From UHGV virus genome UHGV-1837213: 27,443 bases of DNA, one strand, 5' to 3'. Source of the stretch: a virus. The position numbers and the translations under genes were made by a program. This document shows positions 3,526 to 27,443 of the stretch, in pieces (within the stretch, counting starts at the first letter, position 1; every line of letters starts with the position of its first letter). A model generated the notes under the pieces. The model was not told where the DNA came from, ran no database searches, and saw only the letters and a program-made list of their open reading frames with translations.

Positions 3526-3806
3526 TCATCAATCACTTCCATAGCGAAGGTGAAGATCTGCTGGAGTTGCGGAACAGTCAGTTTTTCAAGAACTTCGTCA
3601 GGTACTGAAGGGATAACCTTACGAACCAGATCTGCATAAGCTGTCACTTGCTCAACAGGAGACATGTTCATGAGATCTTTACCTTCCATCTGCTTGATGG
3701 AAACGAACAGACCTACCGTCATTTCAACGATGGGATATTCCTGACCGCCAAATTTGATGCTTTTCTTCGGAGGCAGAATGGAATCGAGATCGAGTAATTT
3801 GGTCAT
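3489..3806 (-). CDS. Tail assembly chaperone (gpG-like), 105 aa
   Basis: Small acidic ORF between the major tail protein and tape measure genes, with a downstream overlapping -1 frame ORF. The position is conserved in siphoviruses. Confidence 0.65.
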   Translation of the reverse strand: MTKLLDLDSILPPKKSIKFGGQEYPIVEMTVGLFVSIKQMEGKDLMNMSPVEQVTAYADLVRKVIPSVPDEVLEKLTVPQLQQIFTFAMEVIDEENEKAAGEGAK

Positions 3807-3815
3807 TGGTTAAAA

Positions 3816-3842
3816 TCCTTTTAAAAGAGAGGCCCATCCTGA
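3816..3842 (-). terminator. Hairpin with T-rich tail between the major tail and chaperone genes (probable attenuator)
   Basis: Inverted repeat AGAGGC...GCCTCT followed on the minus strand by CTTTTAAAAGG. Confidence 0.4.
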
Positions 3843-3861
3843 GCCTCTGCTTAATTACTGA

Positions 3862-4608
3862 TTAATCTGCGGGGTTAATCGTTACTGACTTAGTTGCCTT
3901 CTTACCACCGCTATTGCTGGTGAAGGAGATATTTGTAGAACCCTGCGCCACACCACGTACCAGACCCGTTTGATCTACCGTGGCCTTTTCCTGGTCTTCG
4001 GATTCCCAAACACCGGTTTTGTCTGCGGCATCAGCTGGAGTGATTTCGGCTGTCAGTTGCACAGTTTCTCCAGCTTTTACGGTTGGAGATTCCGGTGAGA
4101 TCGACACAGTTTTTACCGGTTTAGGACCGCTCATTTTGCCCAGAACGCCTTCATCATCCGGGTATGCGCTGAACTGAACAGAGAACACACGAACATCATC
4201 AGACTGGTAGGTCATAGTGAAGTTGCCCGCGGTTGCCGCTTTCGGGATGGTCAACACATAGTCGGTGGTGTCCTGCGGAGTCAGAACCAGCTCCTTCGCC
4301 ACATCAATCAGGTTAACGCCCTGTGCAGATGTGATCGTGACAGAGTTGTCATCTTCGCTCAGAGTAGAACCAGGCATCAGGTCAACCATGTTTTGGAGTA
4401 CAGACTCAGCCAGAGGCGCGGTGATGGTAATGTTGCGCCCCTGAACTAATTCGGAAATTACGGTCTGCCCCAACTGATCGACGGTGACTTTCAGCGTTTC
4501 AGTGGCTACTTCAACCTGAACACCACCTTTGGTGTAACCCAAATCCACACCACCAAACGACACCTTACAGGCACCAAGTTTGATGTTTTTTACATGGGTA
4601 TTAGACAT
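3862..4608 (-). CDS. Major tail protein with C-terminal Ig-like (Big_2-type) domain
   Basis: ORF track 3862..4644; the internal ATG at 4608 (MSNTHVKN) has a strong AAGGAG RBS. The C-terminal region (TVKAGETVQLTAEITPADAADKTGVWESEDQEKATVDQTGLVRGVAQGSTNISF) looks like a bacterial Ig-like group 2 domain. It is followed by a hairpin terminator/attenuator. Confidence 0.8.
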   Translation of the reverse strand: MSNTHVKNIKLGACKVSFGGVDLGYTKGGVQVEVATETLKVTVDQLGQTVISELVQGRNITITAPLAESVLQNMVDLMPGSTLSEDDNSVTITSAQGVNLIDVAKELVLTPQDTTDYVLTIPKAATAGNFTMTYQSDDVRVFSVQFSAYPDDEGVLGKMSGPKPVKTVSISPESPTVKAGETVQLTAEITPADAADKTGVWESEDQEKATVDQTGLVRGVAQGSTNISFTSNSGGKKATKSVTINPAD

Positions 4609-21348: not shown

Positions 21349-21360
21349 TTAATGGAATCA

Positions 21361-21379
21361 AGCGCCCACTATGGGCGCT
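21361..21379 (+). repeat. 19-bp hairpin AGCGCCCACTATGGGCGCT (copy 1, intergenic)
   Basis: Perfect 8-bp stem with 3-nt loop. An identical copy at about 21857-21875 forms the cassette terminator. Confidence 0.6.
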
Positions 21380-21396
21380 TTAAAGGAGCTTTGAAA

Positions 21397-21620: not shown

Positions 21621-21851
21621 ATGTTTGTTCTTATCGCTGGCGTTAACGTCCATAACGAATATTATGTTAATCGCATCGCTGGGATCGCTGGTTACGCTGG
21701 GCGCGCAGTCGAGTTTATCGATGAAACAACGCGTAAAATTGATTTATTGAGCGACCAGGAGCGAAAAAAAGCAGACGTGAACGACGCTGATATATTTTTA
21801 ATGTTAAAAGCGTTTGTAGAAATGGGATTTAAAATCAGTTTACACAAATAA
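21621..21851 (+). CDS. Hypothetical small protein, 76 aa
   Basis: Strong TAAGGAG RBS; followed immediately by a terminator. Confidence 0.6.
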   Translation: MFVLIAGVNVHNEYYVNRIAGIAGYAGRAVEFIDETTRKIDLLSDQERKKADVNDADIFLMLKAFVEMGFKISLHK

Positions 21852-21856
21852 AATCG

Positions 21857-21884
21857 AGCGCCCACTATGGGCGCTTTTTTCGTT
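21857..21884 (+). terminator. Rho-independent terminator (hairpin copy 2 plus T-run)
   Basis: AGCGCCCACTATGGGCGCT followed by TTTTTTCGTTT. Confidence 0.75.
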
Positions 21885-22342: not shown

Positions 22343-22456
22343 GCCGTTTCCCGAAAAAATCCTGGCCGTTTCCCGTCGGCTCATGAATACGTTCCTCGCC
22401 GTTTCTGAAAATTTCCCTGCGGCAGCTGGTGGCTATAGAGAAAGGGCCGTTTCTGG
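22343..22456 (+). repeat. Iteron-like direct repeats (4 copies of GCCGTTTC(C/T)(C/T)G)
   Basis: Copies start near 22343, 22365, 22398 and 22446, all in the same orientation. Confidence 0.6.
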
Positions 22457-22468
22457 CCCTCTTCTCAG

Positions 22469-22951
22469 TTACACGCCATCAAGGATGTGGATGCGGTTGC
22501 TTGCGTATACATTCAGCATAAAGTTAGCGCAAAACAGTTTCCATGTATCAACGCCAGCGGTATACGTAATGTTTTTGCATTTAATCGCATTGTTGGCGAT
22601 CCGCATCCCCTGCGATACTGCTTCATCGTCGGAAAATTTGAACGACGATTGAGTTTTAATCCAGACAGAAATCTGCGTAGCGAACTCAATCAGCTTGGAC
22701 TGGCAGAATCGCCCGGAGCGCACCGGAAAGACGAACGTTCCGAATCCAGAATTTACCACATATGCTTTCTCAAATACCCGCGAGTAACGACGATTGCCAA
22801 TGATGTCGCGTGCAATAATGCATTTTTCTTGTGCTGACAGTTCTACCGTCTCATTGTCGCGCCATGCACCAAGTACTCGTTTTTCAATGTCAGAGAACGT
22901 TACAGCGATATTGCCATGTGCGGGTGCGTTTACAGTAGCGATAAAATTCAT
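22469..22951 (-). CDS. Hypothetical protein, 160 aa
   Basis: AAGGA RBS 8 nt upstream of the ATG; preceded by the conserved promoter/leader element. Confidence 0.6.
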   Translation of the reverse strand: MNFIATVNAPAHGNIAVTFSDIEKRVLGAWRDNETVELSAQEKCIIARDIIGNRRYSRVFEKAYVVNSGFGTFVFPVRSGRFCQSKLIEFATQISVWIKTQSSFKFSDDEAVSQGMRIANNAIKCKNITYTAGVDTWKLFCANFMLNVYASNRIHILDGV

Positions 22952-22972
22952 GATTAATTCCTTATCGTAAAT

Positions 22973-23005
22973 AACAAATTGTTTTCTTGTTGGTGTTAAT
23001 TATCG
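22973..23005 (-). promoter_or_regulatory. Conserved promoter/leader element, copy A
   Basis: Minus-sense CGATAATTAACACCAACAAGAAAACAATTTGTT with a -10-like GATAAT, and TTGACG about 15-16 nt upstream. Confidence 0.55.
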
Positions 23006-23124
23006 TTGTACGAATAAGGCGTCAAAGTGGAAAGTTGCGGTAGCCGGACGGGAACAGGTGGGTTTGTCGGTTGCCTGGAGGTAAGAGGTTGGTGTTTTTA
23101 GCCTGCGGGAAACAGGATGGTCAT

Positions 23125-23152
23125 TTAAGGCCACCAGCATTGGTGGCCTTAA
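23125..23152 (-). terminator. Hairpin terminator containing a Chi octamer (minus orientation)
   Basis: TTAAGGCCACCA-GCAT-TGGTGGCCTTAA, 3 nt after the stop of the 93-aa gene; contains CCACCAGC. Confidence 0.5.
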
Positions 23153-23155
23153 TCT

Positions 23156-23437
23156 TTAGTGGAGCAGACCGATGTCGATGGTATCCCCTGAATCATCCAC
23201 ACGGATCATCAGCATGGCAAAGGCGTTTAGTGGATAGCTTGCGTGCCATTCAGGGAAGCGGTCATCTCGCATGAAGTCGGCAATGTCGTAAACGCATCCC
23301 TCAAAGTGGAAGAATCGCGTGCTTACCTGCTCGTCATAATCCACATGATCCATTTCTTGCTGTTCTGTTTCCGGCAAGTCCAGCCATGATTCAAGAAATA
23401 CATTTTGTGCTTTAGGGGTAATGGTGAAATCAGTCAT
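23156..23437 (-). CDS. Small strongly acidic protein, 93 aa (ORF track 23156..23569; ATG at 23437)
   Basis: The conserved element lies inside the longer ORF. The ATG at 23437 is preceded by TGAGGA. About 19 Asp/Glu against 5 Lys/Arg. Confidence 0.6.
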   Translation of the reverse strand: MTDFTITPKAQNVFLESWLDLPETEQQEMDHVDYDEQVSTRFFHFEGCVYDIADFMRDDRFPEWHASYPLNAFAMLMIRVDDSGDTIDIGLLH

Positions 23438-23457
23438 GAGCATATCCTCACTGCGTA

Positions 23458-23489
23458 AACATGTTGTTTTCTTGTTGGTGTAATTATCG
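23458..23489 (-). promoter_or_regulatory. Conserved promoter/leader element, copy B
   Basis: Minus-sense CGATAATTACACCAACAAGAAAACAACATGTT. Confidence 0.55.
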
Positions 23490-23595
23490 CAGTGTAGATA
23501 AGGCATAAAAGAAGTTAATACAGGCTGAATACACAAGAAAGGTTCTGGAAGTTGATAGCCAGGTTTCAAACTAACCTTCGGTTATTAAAAGTCAT

Positions 23596-23623
23596 TTAAG
23601 ACCACCAATGCTGGTGGCCTTAA
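23596..23623 (-). terminator. Hairpin terminator containing a Chi octamer (plus orientation)
   Basis: TTAAGACCACCA-ATGC-TGGTGGCCTTAA. Same stem as the 23125 copy but with the loop inverted; contains GCTGGTGG. Confidence 0.5.
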
Positions 23624-23626
23624 TAA

Positions 23627-23770
23627 TTATCGCCCGATTACGCTAAGGATCTTTTCCTCAACTGATTTGTTGTTGCGACTAAACTGCCTTGCGTATCTGA
23701 TGACAGAAGAGGCGTTTTGCTTTCTGACCATCTCGGCTCTTTCCTTCAGGCGTTTCTTGAAATCGCCCAT
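23627..23770 (-). CDS. Possible small basic protein, 47 aa (below the ORF-track size cutoff)
   Basis: ATG 2 nt after the stop of the 124-aa gene. Peptide MGDFKKRLKERAEMVRKQNASSVIRYARQFSRNNKSVEEKILSVIGR. Stop immediately before the hairpin at 23596. Weak RBS. Confidence 0.3.
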   Translation of the reverse strand: MGDFKKRLKERAEMVRKQNASSVIRYARQFSRNNKSVEEKILSVIGR

Positions 23771-23772
23771 AT

Positions 23773-24147
23773 TTACCACCAGGCGCAGAAGGTCAGTCTG
23801 TTATTGTGAAAGTCGTGGTTCTTAATCAGATCTTCCACAAGCTCTTTCAACTCCCCCACATCATGCCAGTAACCTTCATCGTACTCCTGACTGCCGAAGA
23901 AAAAACCTTCCCGGGTAGGCAAGTACTCTTCGCAATTACTTTCGTTTATGTGCATCAAATGAGCCTTCAGAAAACAAATGTCATTCATCGTTAATTCTAA
24001 AAGCTCACAATTTTCGACTTCACCTACGTTGCGCTCCATCCACCCAACGAGCGCATTGAACTTACGGAAGTAAGCAACCTGCTTTCTGGATGCCTCGTTA
24101 TTCAGATCGTTTTTAGGCTGTGTCTCGATATAGATATCAAGTCCCAT
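23773..24147 (-). CDS. Small strongly acidic protein, 124 aa (ORF track 23773..24189; ATG at 24147)
   Basis: AAGGAA RBS 7 nt upstream of the ATG at 24147; acidic composition. Confidence 0.6.
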   Translation of the reverse strand: MGLDIYIETQPKNDLNNEASRKQVAYFRKFNALVGWMERNVGEVENCELLELTMNDICFLKAHLMHINESNCEEYLPTREGFFFGSQEYDEGYWHDVGELKELVEDLIKNHDFHNNRLTFCAWW

Positions 24148-24204
24148 GATGGTTTCCTTATTAAGTTGCTTCAGTGAAATCATTTTCACAAATCAGATAA
24201 GGCA

Positions 24205-24225
24205 GAAAACAAATTGTTATCTGGC
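24205..24225. promoter_or_regulatory. Degenerate or inverted copy of the conserved element core (copy C)
   Basis: AGAAAACAAATTGTTATCTGG, containing the palindrome AACAA-A-TTGTT. Confidence 0.35.
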
Positions 24226-24231
24226 TTAATA

Positions 24232-24256
24232 AAATGGCGCGGTTTACGCGCCATTT
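24232..24256 (-). terminator. Rho-independent terminator after the 131-aa gene
   Basis: Stem AAATGGCGCG/CGCGCCATTT followed on the minus strand by TTTTATT. Confidence 0.6.
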
Positions 24257-24264
24257 AAAGAGGA

Positions 24265-24660
24265 TTAAGCGAATACGCTTTCAGGGATTAAGGTGTCGGC
24301 AGGAATGCCAGAGGTAATGCGCAGGCCGTACTGACCAATCCAGGTAGTGTTGGTATTCAGGTTGGAGGCGAATACGGTGTTAACCATATTCATCATGGTT
24401 TCAAACACCTCTTCATCAACCTGGCGGAAGTAGCTCTCGATTTTCAGCAGCAGCGGGTCAGTTGCATCGAGAATGGACTGGTATTGAGTCGCGTACTCGC
24501 CGTCGGAGTCATCACCTTTACGCACGATCGTACTGGCCTGTACTTCGGCGCCAGTTTCGGTGTTGTACGTAACAACGGTGATTTTTGCCACATTCTTACC
24601 TTCGGCGGTTTCAGAGGCATAGTAAACATCAACTGTCAGTTTTTCGCGTTTAATGGTCAT
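24265..24660 (-). CDS. Hypothetical acidic protein, 131 aa (ORF track 24265..24726; ATG at 24660)
   Basis: GGAGA RBS upstream of the ATG at 24660. A sigma70-like promoter TTGTAA-17-TAGAAT overlaps the palindrome GTAAGTATGTACTTAC (about 24704-24719). Confidence 0.6.
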   Translation of the reverse strand: MTIKREKLTVDVYYASETAEGKNVAKITVVTYNTETGAEVQASTIVRKGDDSDGEYATQYQSILDATDPLLLKIESYFRQVDEEVFETMMNMVNTVFASNLNTNTTWIGQYGLRITSGIPADTLIPESVFA

Positions 24661-24723
24661 TTCACTCTCCGTAGTGTATTGGTTATTTTTATATTCTATG
24701 ATCGTAAGTATGTACTTACAATA

Positions 24724-24752
24724 CAAAAAAGCCCCGTAAGGATGGCGGGGCT
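24724..24752 (-). terminator. Rho-independent terminator after the 103-aa gene
   Basis: Stem AGCCCCG/CGGGGCT followed on the minus strand by TTTTTTGTAT. Confidence 0.7.
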
Positions 24753-24786
24753 GTCGTACTGTCGACTAATTACCACTTGCACATTA

Positions 24787-25098
24787 TCAGGCTATTGCCA
24801 TCACTGATGCTCTCTGAATCTCTTGCTGGGCCACGCGGTTAACTTCCATCAAGGCCAGTTCGAGCTGATGTTCCGGCCACATTCTTTGAAATGCCACCCA
24901 GCCTTTTCCACGCTGGCGACGAACATTCATTACATAACGAGTAAAGGTGTTTTTATCGAAAGACACCGCTGTTTCACGGAACAGACGAATAGAGGTTCCA
25001 TTGGCAACGATGTCCAGCAAAGTTAATTGAGCAACCAGCGCAGGCTTCTCTTTTCTCTTCTGGTCTTTGTCCAGACCAAGAACCAATGATTTTTTCAT
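24787..25098 (-). CDS. Small basic protein, 103 aa (ORF track 24787..25128; ATG at 25098)
   Basis: GGAG RBS 5 nt upstream of the ATG at 25098. Basic composition, possibly nucleic-acid binding. Confidence 0.55.
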   Translation of the reverse strand: MKKSLVLGLDKDQKRKEKPALVAQLTLLDIVANGTSIRLFRETAVSFDKNTFTRYVMNVRRQRGKGWVAFQRMWPEHQLELALMEVNRVAQQEIQRASVMAIA

Positions 25099-25110
25099 CA
25101 CAACTCCGTA

Positions 25111-25144
25111 AACAACTTGTTTTCTCAATGGCGTAAATAATACC
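25111..25144 (-). promoter_or_regulatory. Conserved promoter/leader element, copy D
   Basis: Minus-sense TGGTATTATTTACGCCATTGAGAAAACAAGTTGTT; extended -10-like TGGTATTAT with TTGTAG upstream. Confidence 0.5.
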
Positions 25145-25224
25145 AGTAAGAAAACGGCTACAAAGCATAATGATCAGGTGCATGATCGATATGCAGGTTC
25201 TTCCCTGCGGCTATAGAGAAATTA

Positions 25225-25241
25225 AGCCAGCAATGCTGGCT
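25225..25241 (-). terminator. Hairpin terminator after the 109-aa gene
   Basis: Stem AGCCAGC/GCTGGCT followed on the minus strand by TAATTTCTCT. Confidence 0.45.
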
Positions 25242-25251
25242 TTGGTTGGGA

Positions 25252-25581
25252 TTACGCGAATACCTCAAGAAACTCCTGAACGTCCCAATGCTGGACGAGG
25301 TGAAGATAGACCTTAGAAATCACGTCATTTTCGCTATCGCATGTGAAGTAGTACTTCTGGCTGCGGTTGTATGTGTCCACACAAAATTCGCTCATATCCA
25401 TAAAGTCAGCATCTTCACCCATGTCGCAAATCATCAAAGCAGGTGCATCATCACGAGTCATCAGCTCAAGCACCCACCGCGAATTGATCAGAGTGGAAGA
25501 CCAACCTTCCAGCTCATAGAACTGGTCAAACTCTTTTTGAGTCAATTTCTTGATTTGGTTGATGTCGATATGTGCAAACAT
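25252..25581 (-). CDS. Small strongly acidic protein, 109 aa (ORF track 25252..25602; ATG at 25581)
   Basis: AAGGA RBS 7 nt upstream of the ATG at 25581. About 21 Asp/Glu against 8 Lys/Arg. Shares an RDD...ADFM-like segment with the 93-aa protein. Confidence 0.6.
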   Translation of the reverse strand: MFAHIDINQIKKLTQKEFDQFYELEGWSSTLINSRWVLELMTRDDAPALMICDMGEDADFMDMSEFCVDTYNRSQKYYFTCDSENDVISKVYLHLVQHWDVQEFLEVFA

Positions 25582-25594
25582 AAAGCAATCCTTA

Positions 25595-25626
25595 AACAAC
25601 ATGTTTTCTTGATGGTGTTATTATCG
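25595..25626 (-). promoter_or_regulatory. Conserved promoter/leader element, copy E
   Basis: Minus-sense CGATAATAACACCATCAAGAAAACATGTTGTT. Confidence 0.55.
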
Positions 25627-25944
25627 CAATAACGCACAGGCGAAAAAGGATTTTATTCCGGTGAATGTGGTTTTGGCAGTGAGTTTTCAGGTTCAGTACC
25701 GAGAACACTTTTTACATTATTCTGATTTAGTGGCCGAAGGTGGCTGGTGGGCAGAATAATCATCTCCCCGAAAACCTACTGAAATCGATTGTGACCCGTT
25801 GGCTGTCTGGCACAATTACGCTGTAGCTGGGCATTCAGAGGGAATCCAGCGGTAAGTAAGTTCGCCTGCACGTGAGCGCCTCTCTTCTTCCCGCACATTA
25901 CAGGTGGGTAGCCGCAACTCTCCCTCACGCTATACCGGTACGCC

Positions 25945-26076
25945 GCCGTTCCTGAACCGGCATCGAGCCTTTTCCCGAAACCCACACAGGCAACTCGACC
26001 GTTTCCCTGAAAACCTCCAGCCGTTCCCCGAAGGCAACCCAGCCGTTTCTGTAGCGGGATGCAACCTTTTCCCTGT
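25945..26076 (+). repeat. Iteron-like direct repeats (6 copies) with about 22-bp periodicity
   Basis: Copies of (G)CCGTT(T)CC(C)GAA-like sequence starting near 25945, 25967, 25997, 26020, 26042 and 26065. Confidence 0.6.
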
Positions 26077-26130
26077 ATGGACCGAAGGCTGACCGTAGGG
26101 GTGTTACGGGGGATAAAATCAGGAGTTGAA

Positions 26131-26161
26131 TAAATACGAAAAAGGAGGCGACACCCCTCCT
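26131..26161 (-). terminator. Putative terminator at the end of the skewed ORF-free region
   Basis: Minus-sense AGGAGG-GGTGTCG-CCTCCT followed by TTTTTCGTATTT. Confidence 0.45.
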
Positions 26162-26990
26162 TCCCTCCCCACTTATACATACCTGGCTTCTTCGCTATAC
26201 ATGTTGTGTTTTATCTGTCTCAACCTCTCTATAGGCGTTAATGCTCACTCCTTCCAGAATGTTCTATACGGCGACTATTTCTGTTGGTGAATTGGGCGTG
26301 TTGTTCTCTCTGTCGGTGTAAATGGTTTCGTTCGTTTTGCGGTGGTTCTTCTATGGGGTGTTCTCGTCGTTTTGGTGATTGTTCTTCTCCGTGTATGGAG
26401 TAATGGCAGGTGGGCGATTGCTTTCGTTATTGTGTTTGAGTTGTTTGTCTGGAGTGTGTGAAAGGCTTTTGTAGTTATTCGTGTATTGGGTAATGGCGTT
26501 TCCCGTGATTGTTATGTTTCGTGTCTTTTGGGATTGAGAGAAACCTTGCGGTTACAGGCTTCGTTGGGGTTTCAGCGGTTCAGGTGTTTCTTCGCTGTTT
26601 GGGTAATGGCGTGTCGTGGGTATCGCGCGTATGAATGTTTTCGGATTGCCTGTGAAAGTTAGGTTGGTTGTCCGGTAGCCTGGGGAGAAGAGGTGGGTCT
26701 TTTCGGTAGCCTGCCATAAAGAGGTTGGTTGTTTTGGGGAATGGCATGTGTGTTATTTAGTTGTTTTGTTATGCCTGAAAATAAGTTGTTTATATGGTTG
26801 TGTAACGCAACGGGAACGATTTTGAGCGTGTGTTTTTGTTGGTAGTGTGTTGGGTCGTCTGTGGTGAAAATTGGACGCTGTGGCGCTGTCTGCTGCGTAG
26901 AATTACGGGTATAAGCAGTGATGTGTGAAAACGTCAATTTTTTAGACCAAATCGGATGAAAGCGTTGATGTTTCGTTGATCTGTTATTCA
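26162..26990 (-). ncRNA. Candidate long untranslated transcript or structural DNA element; ORF-free with extreme strand skew (G+T rich on plus, C+A rich on minus)
   Basis: No convincing ORF on either strand. One sampled 60-nt stretch was about three quarters G+T. Bounded by a copy of the conserved element (about 26991-27011) and a terminator-like hairpin. Internal short repeats such as GGGTAATGGCG and CGGTAGCCTG. Transcription is inferred, not shown. Confidence 0.3.
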
Positions 26991-27011
26991 GTTGTTTTCT
27001 TGATTGTATAA
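26991..27011 (-). promoter_or_regulatory. Conserved promoter/leader element, copy G
   Basis: Minus-sense TTATACAATCAAGAAAACAAC at the upstream edge of the skewed region. Confidence 0.4.
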
Positions 27012-27143
27012 ACAACTATAACTTATTGATATTTAAGGATGTGATTGCGGGTATGGAAGGGGAGTAGTGGCGATCAACGGATTCTTATAGAAAAGAATCA
27101 AATTGTGACCGCCATTATCAACGGTTTGAATCTGTTTGCAGAT

Positions 27144-27443
27144 TTACCAGTTCCAGCACTCAAGCCCTTCAACGACCGGCGCACCACAATCAAAATGTAC
27201 AGAGTCAAAGCCTACATCAAGTACTTTCTGAATGTTAGCAATCGCGCCTTCGGATATACCATATCGACGCAAGTCGTCTTTCCAGACATCATCCTGTAAC
27301 CCGGCGTGGACAATACAACCGCCGTCAATTTGCGAAACCCAATCCAGCTCATTGCTTGCGATCATGAATCGGCGAGCATCTTCCTCTGATGTATGAGATG
27401 AGCTGATCAATGCCACCTGGTAGGCTTGGGTAATGTTCAACAT
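27144..27443 (-). CDS. Hypothetical acidic protein, 99 aa; start codon at the last bases of the window
   Basis: ORF with ATG at 27443-27441; its upstream region is outside the window, so the start cannot be verified. Confidence 0.45.
   Translation of the reverse strand: MLNITQAYQVALISSSHTSEEDARRFMIASNELDWVSQIDGGCIVHAGLQDDVWKDDLRRYGISEGAIANIQKVLDVGFDSVHFDCGAPVVEGLECWNW

Follow-up and report, generated by a model that had tools for sequence, protein, structure and literature searches.

Results

Small acidic proteins encoded by an SSU5-type phage-plasmid

The DNA analysed here is a stretch of 27,443 nucleotides (nt) from the virus genome UHGV-1837213, referred to hereafter as the window. Nucleotide identity and gene content placed it within an SSU5/pHCM2-type phage-plasmid, a kind of element that is common in clinical Escherichia, Shigella, Salmonella Typhi, Klebsiella and Yersinia pestis (pMT1). 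Our subject is an array of small genes at positions 23156-25581, several of which encode strongly acidic proteins. The first half of the window contains head, tail and terminase genes, which are followed by genes for ParB-like, helicase and regulator proteins, and the array lies among successive small hypothetical genes on the minus strand. Sequence surrounding the array (2.7 kb) was 98-99.9% identical to about 180 E. coli plasmids, each of about 110 kb, typed as IncFIB and non-mobilisable, and the array region was 98.5% identical to Escherichia phage Cyrano. More diverged copies were found in Klebsiella, Enterobacter, Yersinia, Salmonella and Cronobacter. Several toxin-antitoxin systems are carried elsewhere on the element, outside the array.

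Six open reading frames, all on the minus strand, occupy 23156-25581. From the 5' end of that strand they encode gF109 (25252-25581; 109 amino acids (aa), net charge -13, isoelectric point (pI) 4.3), gE103 (24787-25098; 103 aa, basic, net +8, pI 10.5), gD131 (24265-24660; 131 aa, net -9, pI 4.3), gC124 (23773-24147; 124 aa, net -12, pI 4.7), gB47 (23627-23770; 47 aa, basic, net +8, pI 11) and gA93 (23156-23437; 93 aa, net -15, pI 4.1). The calls agreed with the RefSeq annotation of a plasmid that is 98.9% identical; start codons were chosen as those with a Shine-Dalgarno site and were the same as the RefSeq starts. A seventh gene, g160 (22469-22951, minus strand; 160 aa, basic), is the last cassette of the array and lies outside 23156-25581, and a gene for a 99-aa DUF5983 protein (27144-27443, minus strand; net -10) is an upstream member of the same island. 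An earlier reading of this DNA from its letters (the original prediction) had described an array of genes for small, very acidic proteins. The lengths that it gave for the acidic products were correct and its estimate of -13 to -14 for the net charge of the 93-, 124- and 109-aa proteins was close to the computed values. The 131-aa protein is acidic as it stated, though only mildly. The acidic genes are thus real, but they do not form an unbroken array, with the basic gB47 and gE103 interspersed among them.

The charge per residue was -0.16 for gA, -0.097 for gC and -0.12 for gF, compared with about -0.05 for gD. High negative charge, the property expected of the DNA-mimic class, was kept across the families of the first three (median net charge -14 for gA, -12 for gC and -14 for gF) while the gD family was mildly acidic. 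When proteins with a net charge per residue of -0.09 or less were taken as an acidic class, a threshold picked after the data had been seen, 11 of the 123 annotated coding sequences of Cyrano belonged to it, including gA, gC, gF and the 99-aa neighbour. Four of 11 consecutive genes at this locus were in the class (hypergeometric p ~0.009, with the same post hoc threshold). The acidity of these proteins is therefore exceptional against the element's own proteome, and it is clustered.

Transcription units

The six genes form five transcription units (gF, gE, gD, gC-gB and gA), and every unit has its promoter, Shine-Dalgarno site and hairpin. The Shine-Dalgarno site of each gene is of the AAGGA/GGAG type and lies 6-9 nt 5' of the ATG. 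The promoters of gA, gC, gE and gF are of the extended -10 type (TGnGATAAT-like), and gD has its own sigma-70 promoter, TTGTAA-17-TAGAAT, at 24693-24721 (minus strand). Folding with RNAfold gave G+C-rich hairpins of -21 to -25 kcal/mol soon after the stop codons of gF, gE, gD, gB, gA and g160. On the minus strand, these are an 8-bp hairpin with a weak T-tract after gF (25224-25242), intrinsic terminators after gE (24730-24752; GCCCCG stem, then TTTTTTG) and gD (24232-24256; GGCGCG stem, then ATTTTATT), 12-bp hairpins after gB (23596-23623) and gA (23125-23152; TTAAGGCCACC...GGTGGCCTTAA), which are near-copies of each other (repeat D8), and a hairpin after g160 (~22442-22461). No hairpin was found by RNAfold in the gap between gC and gB, and the gB start lies 2 nt after the gC stop, so gC is not monocistronic. 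The statement in the original prediction that each gene is monocistronic, with its own promoter, ribosome-binding site and hairpin, therefore applies to gF, gE, gD and gA but not to gC-gB, which is bicistronic.

A shared promoter and leader module

An element of ~75 nt is repeated upstream of g160, gA, gE and gF. In order, this module has a GCCTTAT-type stretch at about -30, an extended -10 (TGCGATAAT), ACACCAaCAAGAAAACA at the predicted transcript start and the Shine-Dalgarno site; that is, a sigma-70 promoter with a weak -35 region and an extended -10, followed by a conserved C+A-rich leader. On the minus strand, the copies lie at 25582-25658 for gF (TGCGATAAT, then ACACCATCAAGAAAACA and the Shine-Dalgarno site; repeat families D3-D5; nhmmer E = 3e-19), 25099-25174 for gE (nhmmer E = 1e-18), 23438-23521 for gA (TGCGATAAT, then ACACCAACAAGAAAACA; nhmmer E = 3e-19) and 22952-23035 for g160. 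The promoter region of gC (24148-24215, minus strand; GCCTTATCT, then the extended -10 TGTGAAAAT; repeat copy D3 at 24182-24215) contains the promoter half of the module without the leader half.

An nhmmer search of the entire 108-kb Cyrano genome with the module profile recovered the four array copies (E ≤ 1e-16) and only three others, which precede CYRAN_87, CYRAN_101 (acidic, DUF5983) and CYRAN_58 (acidic, DUF7238). The copy 5' of the 99-aa DUF5983 gene is diverged (Cyrano 93124-93185, E = 3e-6). Four of the seven genes behind a module encode proteins of the acidic class, as against 11 of 123 genome-wide (p ~0.001). The copy before the acidic DUF7238 protein (138 aa, -13) has E = 3e-4, and the next gene encodes a 91-aa protein of net charge -15, the most acidic of the genome; this second, remote site (Cyrano 58553-59380, outside the window) suggests a dispersed regulon.

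The four leaders folded no better than shuffled sequences (z = +0.2, -0.35, +0.75 and +0.9), which indicates that the module is conserved at the level of sequence and not as a structured RNA. Such conservation would fit an operator, or a recognition or translation element in single-stranded RNA. A scan of the whole window against Rfam at gathering thresholds gave no match. The module provides a handle for finding the regulator that times expression of the island. One candidate local regulator is SSU5_116 (3774-4046 in our SSU5 locus, L016), a 90-aa protein annotated as 'repressor-like' that is encoded on the opposite strand between g160 and gA93 in SSU5. It has a weak helix-turn-helix match (HTH_60, E = 0.003, below Pfam's cut-off) and is absent from the E. 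coli window.

Turnover of genes between relatives

Both SSU5 and Klebsiella phage pJN2-26 keep the gene order g160 - gA93 - gD131 - gE103 and lack the gC-gB cassette. The gF slot is occupied by different proteins: two of 72 aa (net -12) and 71 aa (net -8) in SSU5, with counterparts of 70 aa (net -10) and 72 aa (net -9) in pJN2-26. A clear copy of the module (E 1e-14 to 1e-16) precedes these replacements, and further small acidic proteins are encoded upstream. Genes thus turn over while acidity stays, and because different genes keep the same charge and the same control element, these comparisons argue that acidity itself is the selected property.

Two near-identical segments of 39 nt (23120-23158 and 23591-23629) hold the same 12-bp palindromic hairpin, one closing the gA unit and the other the gC-gB unit. 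Since the gC-gB cassette is missing from SSU5 and pJN2-26, the duplicated hairpin may mark the joint of its insertion. The 99-aa protein encoded upstream matched DUF5983 with E = 7e-11. Its SSU5 counterpart (E = 1.5e-22) is flanked by more small acidic proteins, one of 63 aa (-6) and one of 78 aa (-9), so the island extends past 23156-25581 and past the window.

Expression in a lysogen

Published RNA-seq data are available for LF82, a Cyrano lysogen (PMC9928086, Table 1, S1 Table). In overnight LB cultures, the values (fragments per kilobase per million reads, FPKM, plus 5) were 12.8 for gF, 17.0 for gD, 5.7 for gC, 6.7 for gA and 57.9 for gB47, with an element median of 9.8 and an authors' cut-off for morons of 49, i.e. 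5-fold (PMC9928086). The acidic genes were thus at background, without the transcription above the prophage background that is expected of morons. The only array gene listed as a moron was gB47 (CYRAN_109), at ~6-fold above background (PMC9928086). Its transcript was ~10-fold more abundant than that of gC124 (57.9 vs 5.7) even though gB starts 2 nt after the gC stop, which implies a promoter inside gC, a processed RNA of high stability or a small RNA missing from the annotation.

In macrophages, where the lysogen is under stress and the SOS response is induced, gF rose by a log2 of +4.3, gA by +3.1, g160 by +3.0, and gD and gC each by +2 to +3; for most structural genes the change was 0-1.5 log2 at 1 h (PMC9928086). 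The rise is weak evidence for an early, derepressed class of genes because many maintenance genes rise too. Overall, the expression data fit conditionally expressed phage genes rather than lysogenic-conversion genes.

The gC124 family

Searches with gC124 recovered 79 homologues with identities down to 29%, which places it in a family that is widespread among mobile elements. Three residues are invariant in the family (N31, G81 and F84) and M1-G2-L3-D4, Y26, R28, K29, P77, F82, F83, G85, Y89 and Y93 are nearly so, giving an N-terminal MGLD and the motifs YFRKxN and PTxEGFFFGSxEYDExY. The median net charge was -12, and 83% of members had -0.05 or less per residue. A scan of one genome per species confirmed 98 relatives, with hosts in Proteobacteria, Actinobacteria, Firmicutes, Bacteroidota, Methanobacteriaceae and DPANN archaea.

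The AlphaFold2 (AF2) model of gC124 had a predicted local distance difference test (pLDDT) score of 93.5 and was the sole reliable model in the array. A fold search with this model gave the N-terminal domain of DapD (7.4), YfbM (DUF1877; 6.3) and the Neisseria DNA mimic DMP12 (5.8). Foldseek returned the same three folds, with nothing below E = 0.03 and a probability for DMP12 of 0.35. Against predicted viral structures there were ten matches at E < 0.001, including proteins of jumbo phages, all uncharacterised. DMP12 is reported to have a novel fold and to bind HU by mimicking DNA (PMC3643605). None of 59 gC family members tested matched the DUF1877 model, and a search of PDB sequences with the gC family profile did not retrieve 1ryl or 3w1o even at E = 10. 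The modelled resemblance to YfbM and DMP12 is weak and no more than suggestive.

The genomic company of the family was more informative. An E. coli island has the order integrase - 133 aa - gC-like - 63 aa - ArdA - ... - LPD29 - DUF1281. A metagenomic integrative/conjugative element has the order TraG_N ... integrase - 124 aa - 87 aa - gC-like - ArdB/KlcA - polyvalent-protein metallopeptidase - ... - TraI_2 relaxase, with ArdB/KlcA 12 nt downstream of the gC-like gene. A third element has DUF3577 - ArdA - gC-like - 169 aa - ArdC. Within two genes on either side of gC homologues, the recurrent Pfam families were the ArdC N-domain (5), its metallopeptidase partner (4), ATP-dependent DNA ligase (5) and dUTPase/dCTP deaminase (5). 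Seeded searches placed ArdC 0.5-0.8 kb downstream at five loci, ArdB directly downstream at one and ArdA 1.9 kb upstream at another (L086). In all, ArdA, ArdB/KlcA or ArdC lay within two genes or 2 kb of gC homologues at ten sampled loci, comprising three metagenomic element types and 7 of 80 loci in reference genomes. That the family adjoins three anti-restriction families, unrelated to one another and independently arranged, is our strongest evidence for a counter-defence function; it is evidence by association, and it makes an anti-restriction role for gC124 plausible. It covers one of the four acidic proteins.

Relationships of the other array proteins

Each array protein fell into a PHROG family of unknown function (PHROG 7645 for gF109, PHROG 5125 for gE103). 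None matched Ocr, ArdA (PF07275) or ArdB/KlcA (PF03230, Antirestrict), and phmmer and profile searches of all PDB sequences gave nothing credible. Our survey of the literature on DUF5983, DUF1877 and SSU5 anti-defence found no functional study of these proteins.

The gA93 protein is a core gene product of SSU5-like phage-plasmids in Escherichia, Salmonella, Klebsiella, Yersinia, Enterobacter and Cronobacter; its 35 relatives are all in SSU5-like elements. The label 'ABC transporter' that it carries in NCBI records is an annotation error, the protein having 93 aa and no ABC-transporter match. For gF109 there were 10 homologues among 5.8 billion proteins, all of at least 74% identity and, where named, all from E. 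coli; it is an orphan, confined to SSU5-like elements of E. coli. An apparent match of gF109 to potato multicystatin (phmmer E = 1e-4, with no single stretch passing) disappeared when the family profile was used and was compositional. The gD131 family is small (28 representative relatives) and mildly acidic only. The basic gE103 has the promoter/leader module and is conserved in SSU5 and the Klebsiella relatives.

A short segment common to the 93- and 109-aa proteins (RDD...ADFM-like) had been taken to suggest that they are paralogues. It proved to be a chance resemblance (BLASTP E = 3.8, hhalign probability 0.2%), and paralogy was likewise rejected for every pair among gA, gC and gF (hhalign probabilities 0.2-0.3%).

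Adjacent non-coding DNA and other repeats

Upstream of gF, ~1.35 kb at 25650-27040 (minus strand) lacks a convincing gene and is left empty in RefSeq; CYRAN_103 and CYRAN_104, annotated in the Cyrano counterpart, look spurious. The region begins with a partial copy of the promoter/leader motif (26993-27009) and continues with ~750 nt whose minus strand is extremely rich in C+A and poor in G (plus-strand GC skew +0.4 to +0.53, AT skew down to -0.6) and which contain 28-nt repeats at 26385, 26475 and 26588. It ends with a G-rich segment of ~500 nt. Position and skew are conserved in SSU5 and Klebsiella pJN2-26, at 68-70% identity. A search of 25600-27150 against Rfam at E ≤ 1 gave no match, and the RNA-seq signal over the region is near zero in the LF82 lysogen (PMC9928086). 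The region may encode a long non-coding RNA, act as an origin or iteron-like element, or serve in packaging or recombination.

A repeat of ~36 nt (GGTAGCCTGG..AAGAGGTTGGT-like) is present in four copies as two tandem pairs, one between gA and g160 (23064-23127) and one inside the C+A-rich non-coding DNA (26669-26735). Further away, two 31-nt copies of a GC-rich palindrome with a T-tract (GAGCGCCCACTATGGGCGCTTT; repeat D10) lie 496 nt apart at 21351-21381 and 21847-21877. They are 90% identical and are probably duplicated terminators in the neighbouring plus-strand gene block.

Discussion

A proposed counter-defence island

The explanation that we favour, while stopping just short of calling it probable, is that the array consists of co-regulated, exchangeable cassettes whose acidic proteins block host DNA-acting proteins when the element enters a cell or is induced. 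The region is the centre of an accessory island of ~5-7 kb made up of small, independently transcribed gene cassettes. Most cassettes have the same regulatory unit (promoter, C+A-rich leader, Shine-Dalgarno site and closing hairpin). The small proteins that they encode are unrelated, and strongly acidic ones are unusually frequent among them. During carriage of the element as a plasmid the genes for the acidic proteins are off; they would be switched on jointly at entry into a new cell or at induction. Their products may then bind host DNA-acting proteins in stoichiometric amounts and so block them, with restriction-type defences as the foremost targets and nucleoid proteins possibly included, and the binding might occur through electrostatic imitation of DNA.

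On this reading the acidic proteins are credible candidate inhibitors of host defences, a view that our results partly support. Their proposal as anti-defence candidates has gained for gC124, which now has Ard neighbours, an acidic family and a weak resemblance to DMP12; for gA93 and gF109 the argument is still one of composition and context. These two may share the role suggested for gC124, to judge from their charge, shared control and turnover. The case for gD131 is the weakest. Homology to structural or metabolic proteins, named at the outset as a sign against such a role, was not seen, no annotated family being matched beyond the function-unknown PHROGs. DNA mimicry is a reasonable, though unproven, mechanism for the acidic proteins. 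A more ambitious proposal, which we rate as rather unlikely as a whole, is that the gC124 family is an unrecognised anti-restriction or DNA-mimic family in phages, plasmids and integrative elements of many phyla and some archaea, that the SSU5 island is an exchangeable anti-defence array under one module, and that gA93, gF109 and the replacements in Salmonella and Klebsiella are lineage-specific inhibitors.

Several observations weigh against an anti-defence role. The six proteins had no Pfam matches at E ≤ 0.01 and none in NCBIfam or PADLOC, no array protein matched any known anti-defence family by sequence, and the island itself contains no known anti-defence gene to anchor it. A DefenseFinder survey reported few anti-defence genes in SSU5-group elements (bioRxiv 10.1101/2025.09.12.675607). 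No informative relatives were found for gA93 and gF109, and the AF2 model of gA93 is unreliable (pLDDT 61). The rise in macrophages is common to many Cyrano genes, including maintenance genes. As for gC124, its most conserved residues are aromatic, glycine or basic and not acidic, which suggests a site for specific binding or catalysis rather than a surface broadly resembling DNA. The anti-restriction neighbourhood was present at 7 of 80 reference loci (six proteobacterial, one from an unclassified rumen bacterium). In phages, gC homologues have ligase, dUTPase and ribonucleotide-reductase genes around them, and in large virulent phages they are located in early regions devoted to nucleotide metabolism; a role in nucleotide or DNA metabolism would fit this context too.

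Alternative explanations

The acidic proteins might instead be host-takeover factors that bind HU, H-NS or RNA polymerase and so remodel the chromosome or relieve silencing of incoming AT-rich DNA. Acidity is what the proteins have in common, their genes are silent in the lysogen but go up under stress, and the only functionally characterised structural neighbour of gC124, DMP12, is an HU binder. However, the neighbours of gC homologues in conjugative elements are specifically the anti-restriction genes for ArdA, ArdB and ArdC and not nucleoid-protein genes. We consider host takeover unlikely, and it overlaps with a block on host defences because Ocr-type mimics bind several DNA-binding proteins.

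The phage neighbourhoods of gC homologues raise the further idea that gC124, and perhaps others, are accessory subunits or enzymes of phage DNA or nucleotide metabolism, with acidity being incidental. Phage early regions, however, mix metabolic and anti-host genes, so such a setting is not diagnostic. Within the SSU5 family the gC cassette can be dispensed with, gC homologues occur in integrative and conjugative elements without such metabolic neighbours, and no enzyme family was matched. A metabolic function therefore seems improbable to us.

We give still less credence to lysogenic-conversion genes (morons) or superinfection-exclusion genes that benefit the host. The units are autonomous, each with its own promoter and terminator in the classical moron layout, and the locus varies between relatives. 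Yet the acidic genes are at or below the element background in the lysogen, where only gB47 passes the published threshold, and no defence-system model in PADLOC matched.

Acidic/basic toxin-antitoxin-like or addiction pairs for plasmid maintenance (gC/gB, gF/gE and gA/g160) are the least credible of all, for although small acidic and basic proteins alternate, gB starts 2 nt after gC and is transcribed in the lysogen, and several toxin-antitoxin systems exist elsewhere on the element, the partners other than gC-gB are separate units with terminators between them, BLASTP found no gB-like partner next to gC homologues, SSU5 and pJN2-26 lack the cassette altogether, the would-be acidic antitoxins are silent in the plasmid state, when they would be needed (gC 5.7 against a median of 9.8; gB 57.9), and no toxin-antitoxin family was matched.

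Small acidic phage proteins are already a known kind of anti-defence candidate. The new details here are the gC family, the module common to several cassettes and a turnover that preserves charge; the specific families are uncharacterised. The most useful lead is gC124, with its confident model, clear motifs, spread over many phyla and repeated ArdA, ArdB and ArdC neighbours. If the island is a counter-defence toolkit, it would help to explain how SSU5-type elements become established in new hosts and would supply several new families of inhibitors.

Comparison with known systems

Ocr (gp0.3 of phage T7) is a DNA-mimic inhibitor of type I restriction-modification and BREX, and ArdA is an acidic DNA mimic. 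The hallmark of Ocr is a dimer with surface carboxylates that mimic bent B-DNA and with binding to the methyltransferase of type I restriction-modification or BREX. Like Ocr, which is a very acidic protein of ~100-120 aa made from a separately promoted phage gene, the acidic array proteins are small and encoded by separately promoted genes; none of them matches Ocr by sequence. The relationship of gC124 to ArdA, ArdB/KlcA and ArdC is one of company: its homologues are their immediate same-strand neighbours, in runs of small genes by integrase or relaxase genes, but gC124 has no match to PF07275, PF03230 or PF08401, and none of these families is present in the window. With Neisseria DMP12 (HU-binding; PDB 3w1o) and YfbM/DUF1877 (PDB 1ryl), gC124 has an identity of 10-15% and no profile match. 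At the level of organisation, the array resembles the anti-defence islands of plasmid leading regions and phage early regions, where small, fast-evolving genes, mostly of unknown function, are likewise clustered, individually regulated and exchanged. It differs from them in that the element is a non-conjugative phage-plasmid and that control is through a sigma-70 promoter/leader module in double-stranded DNA.

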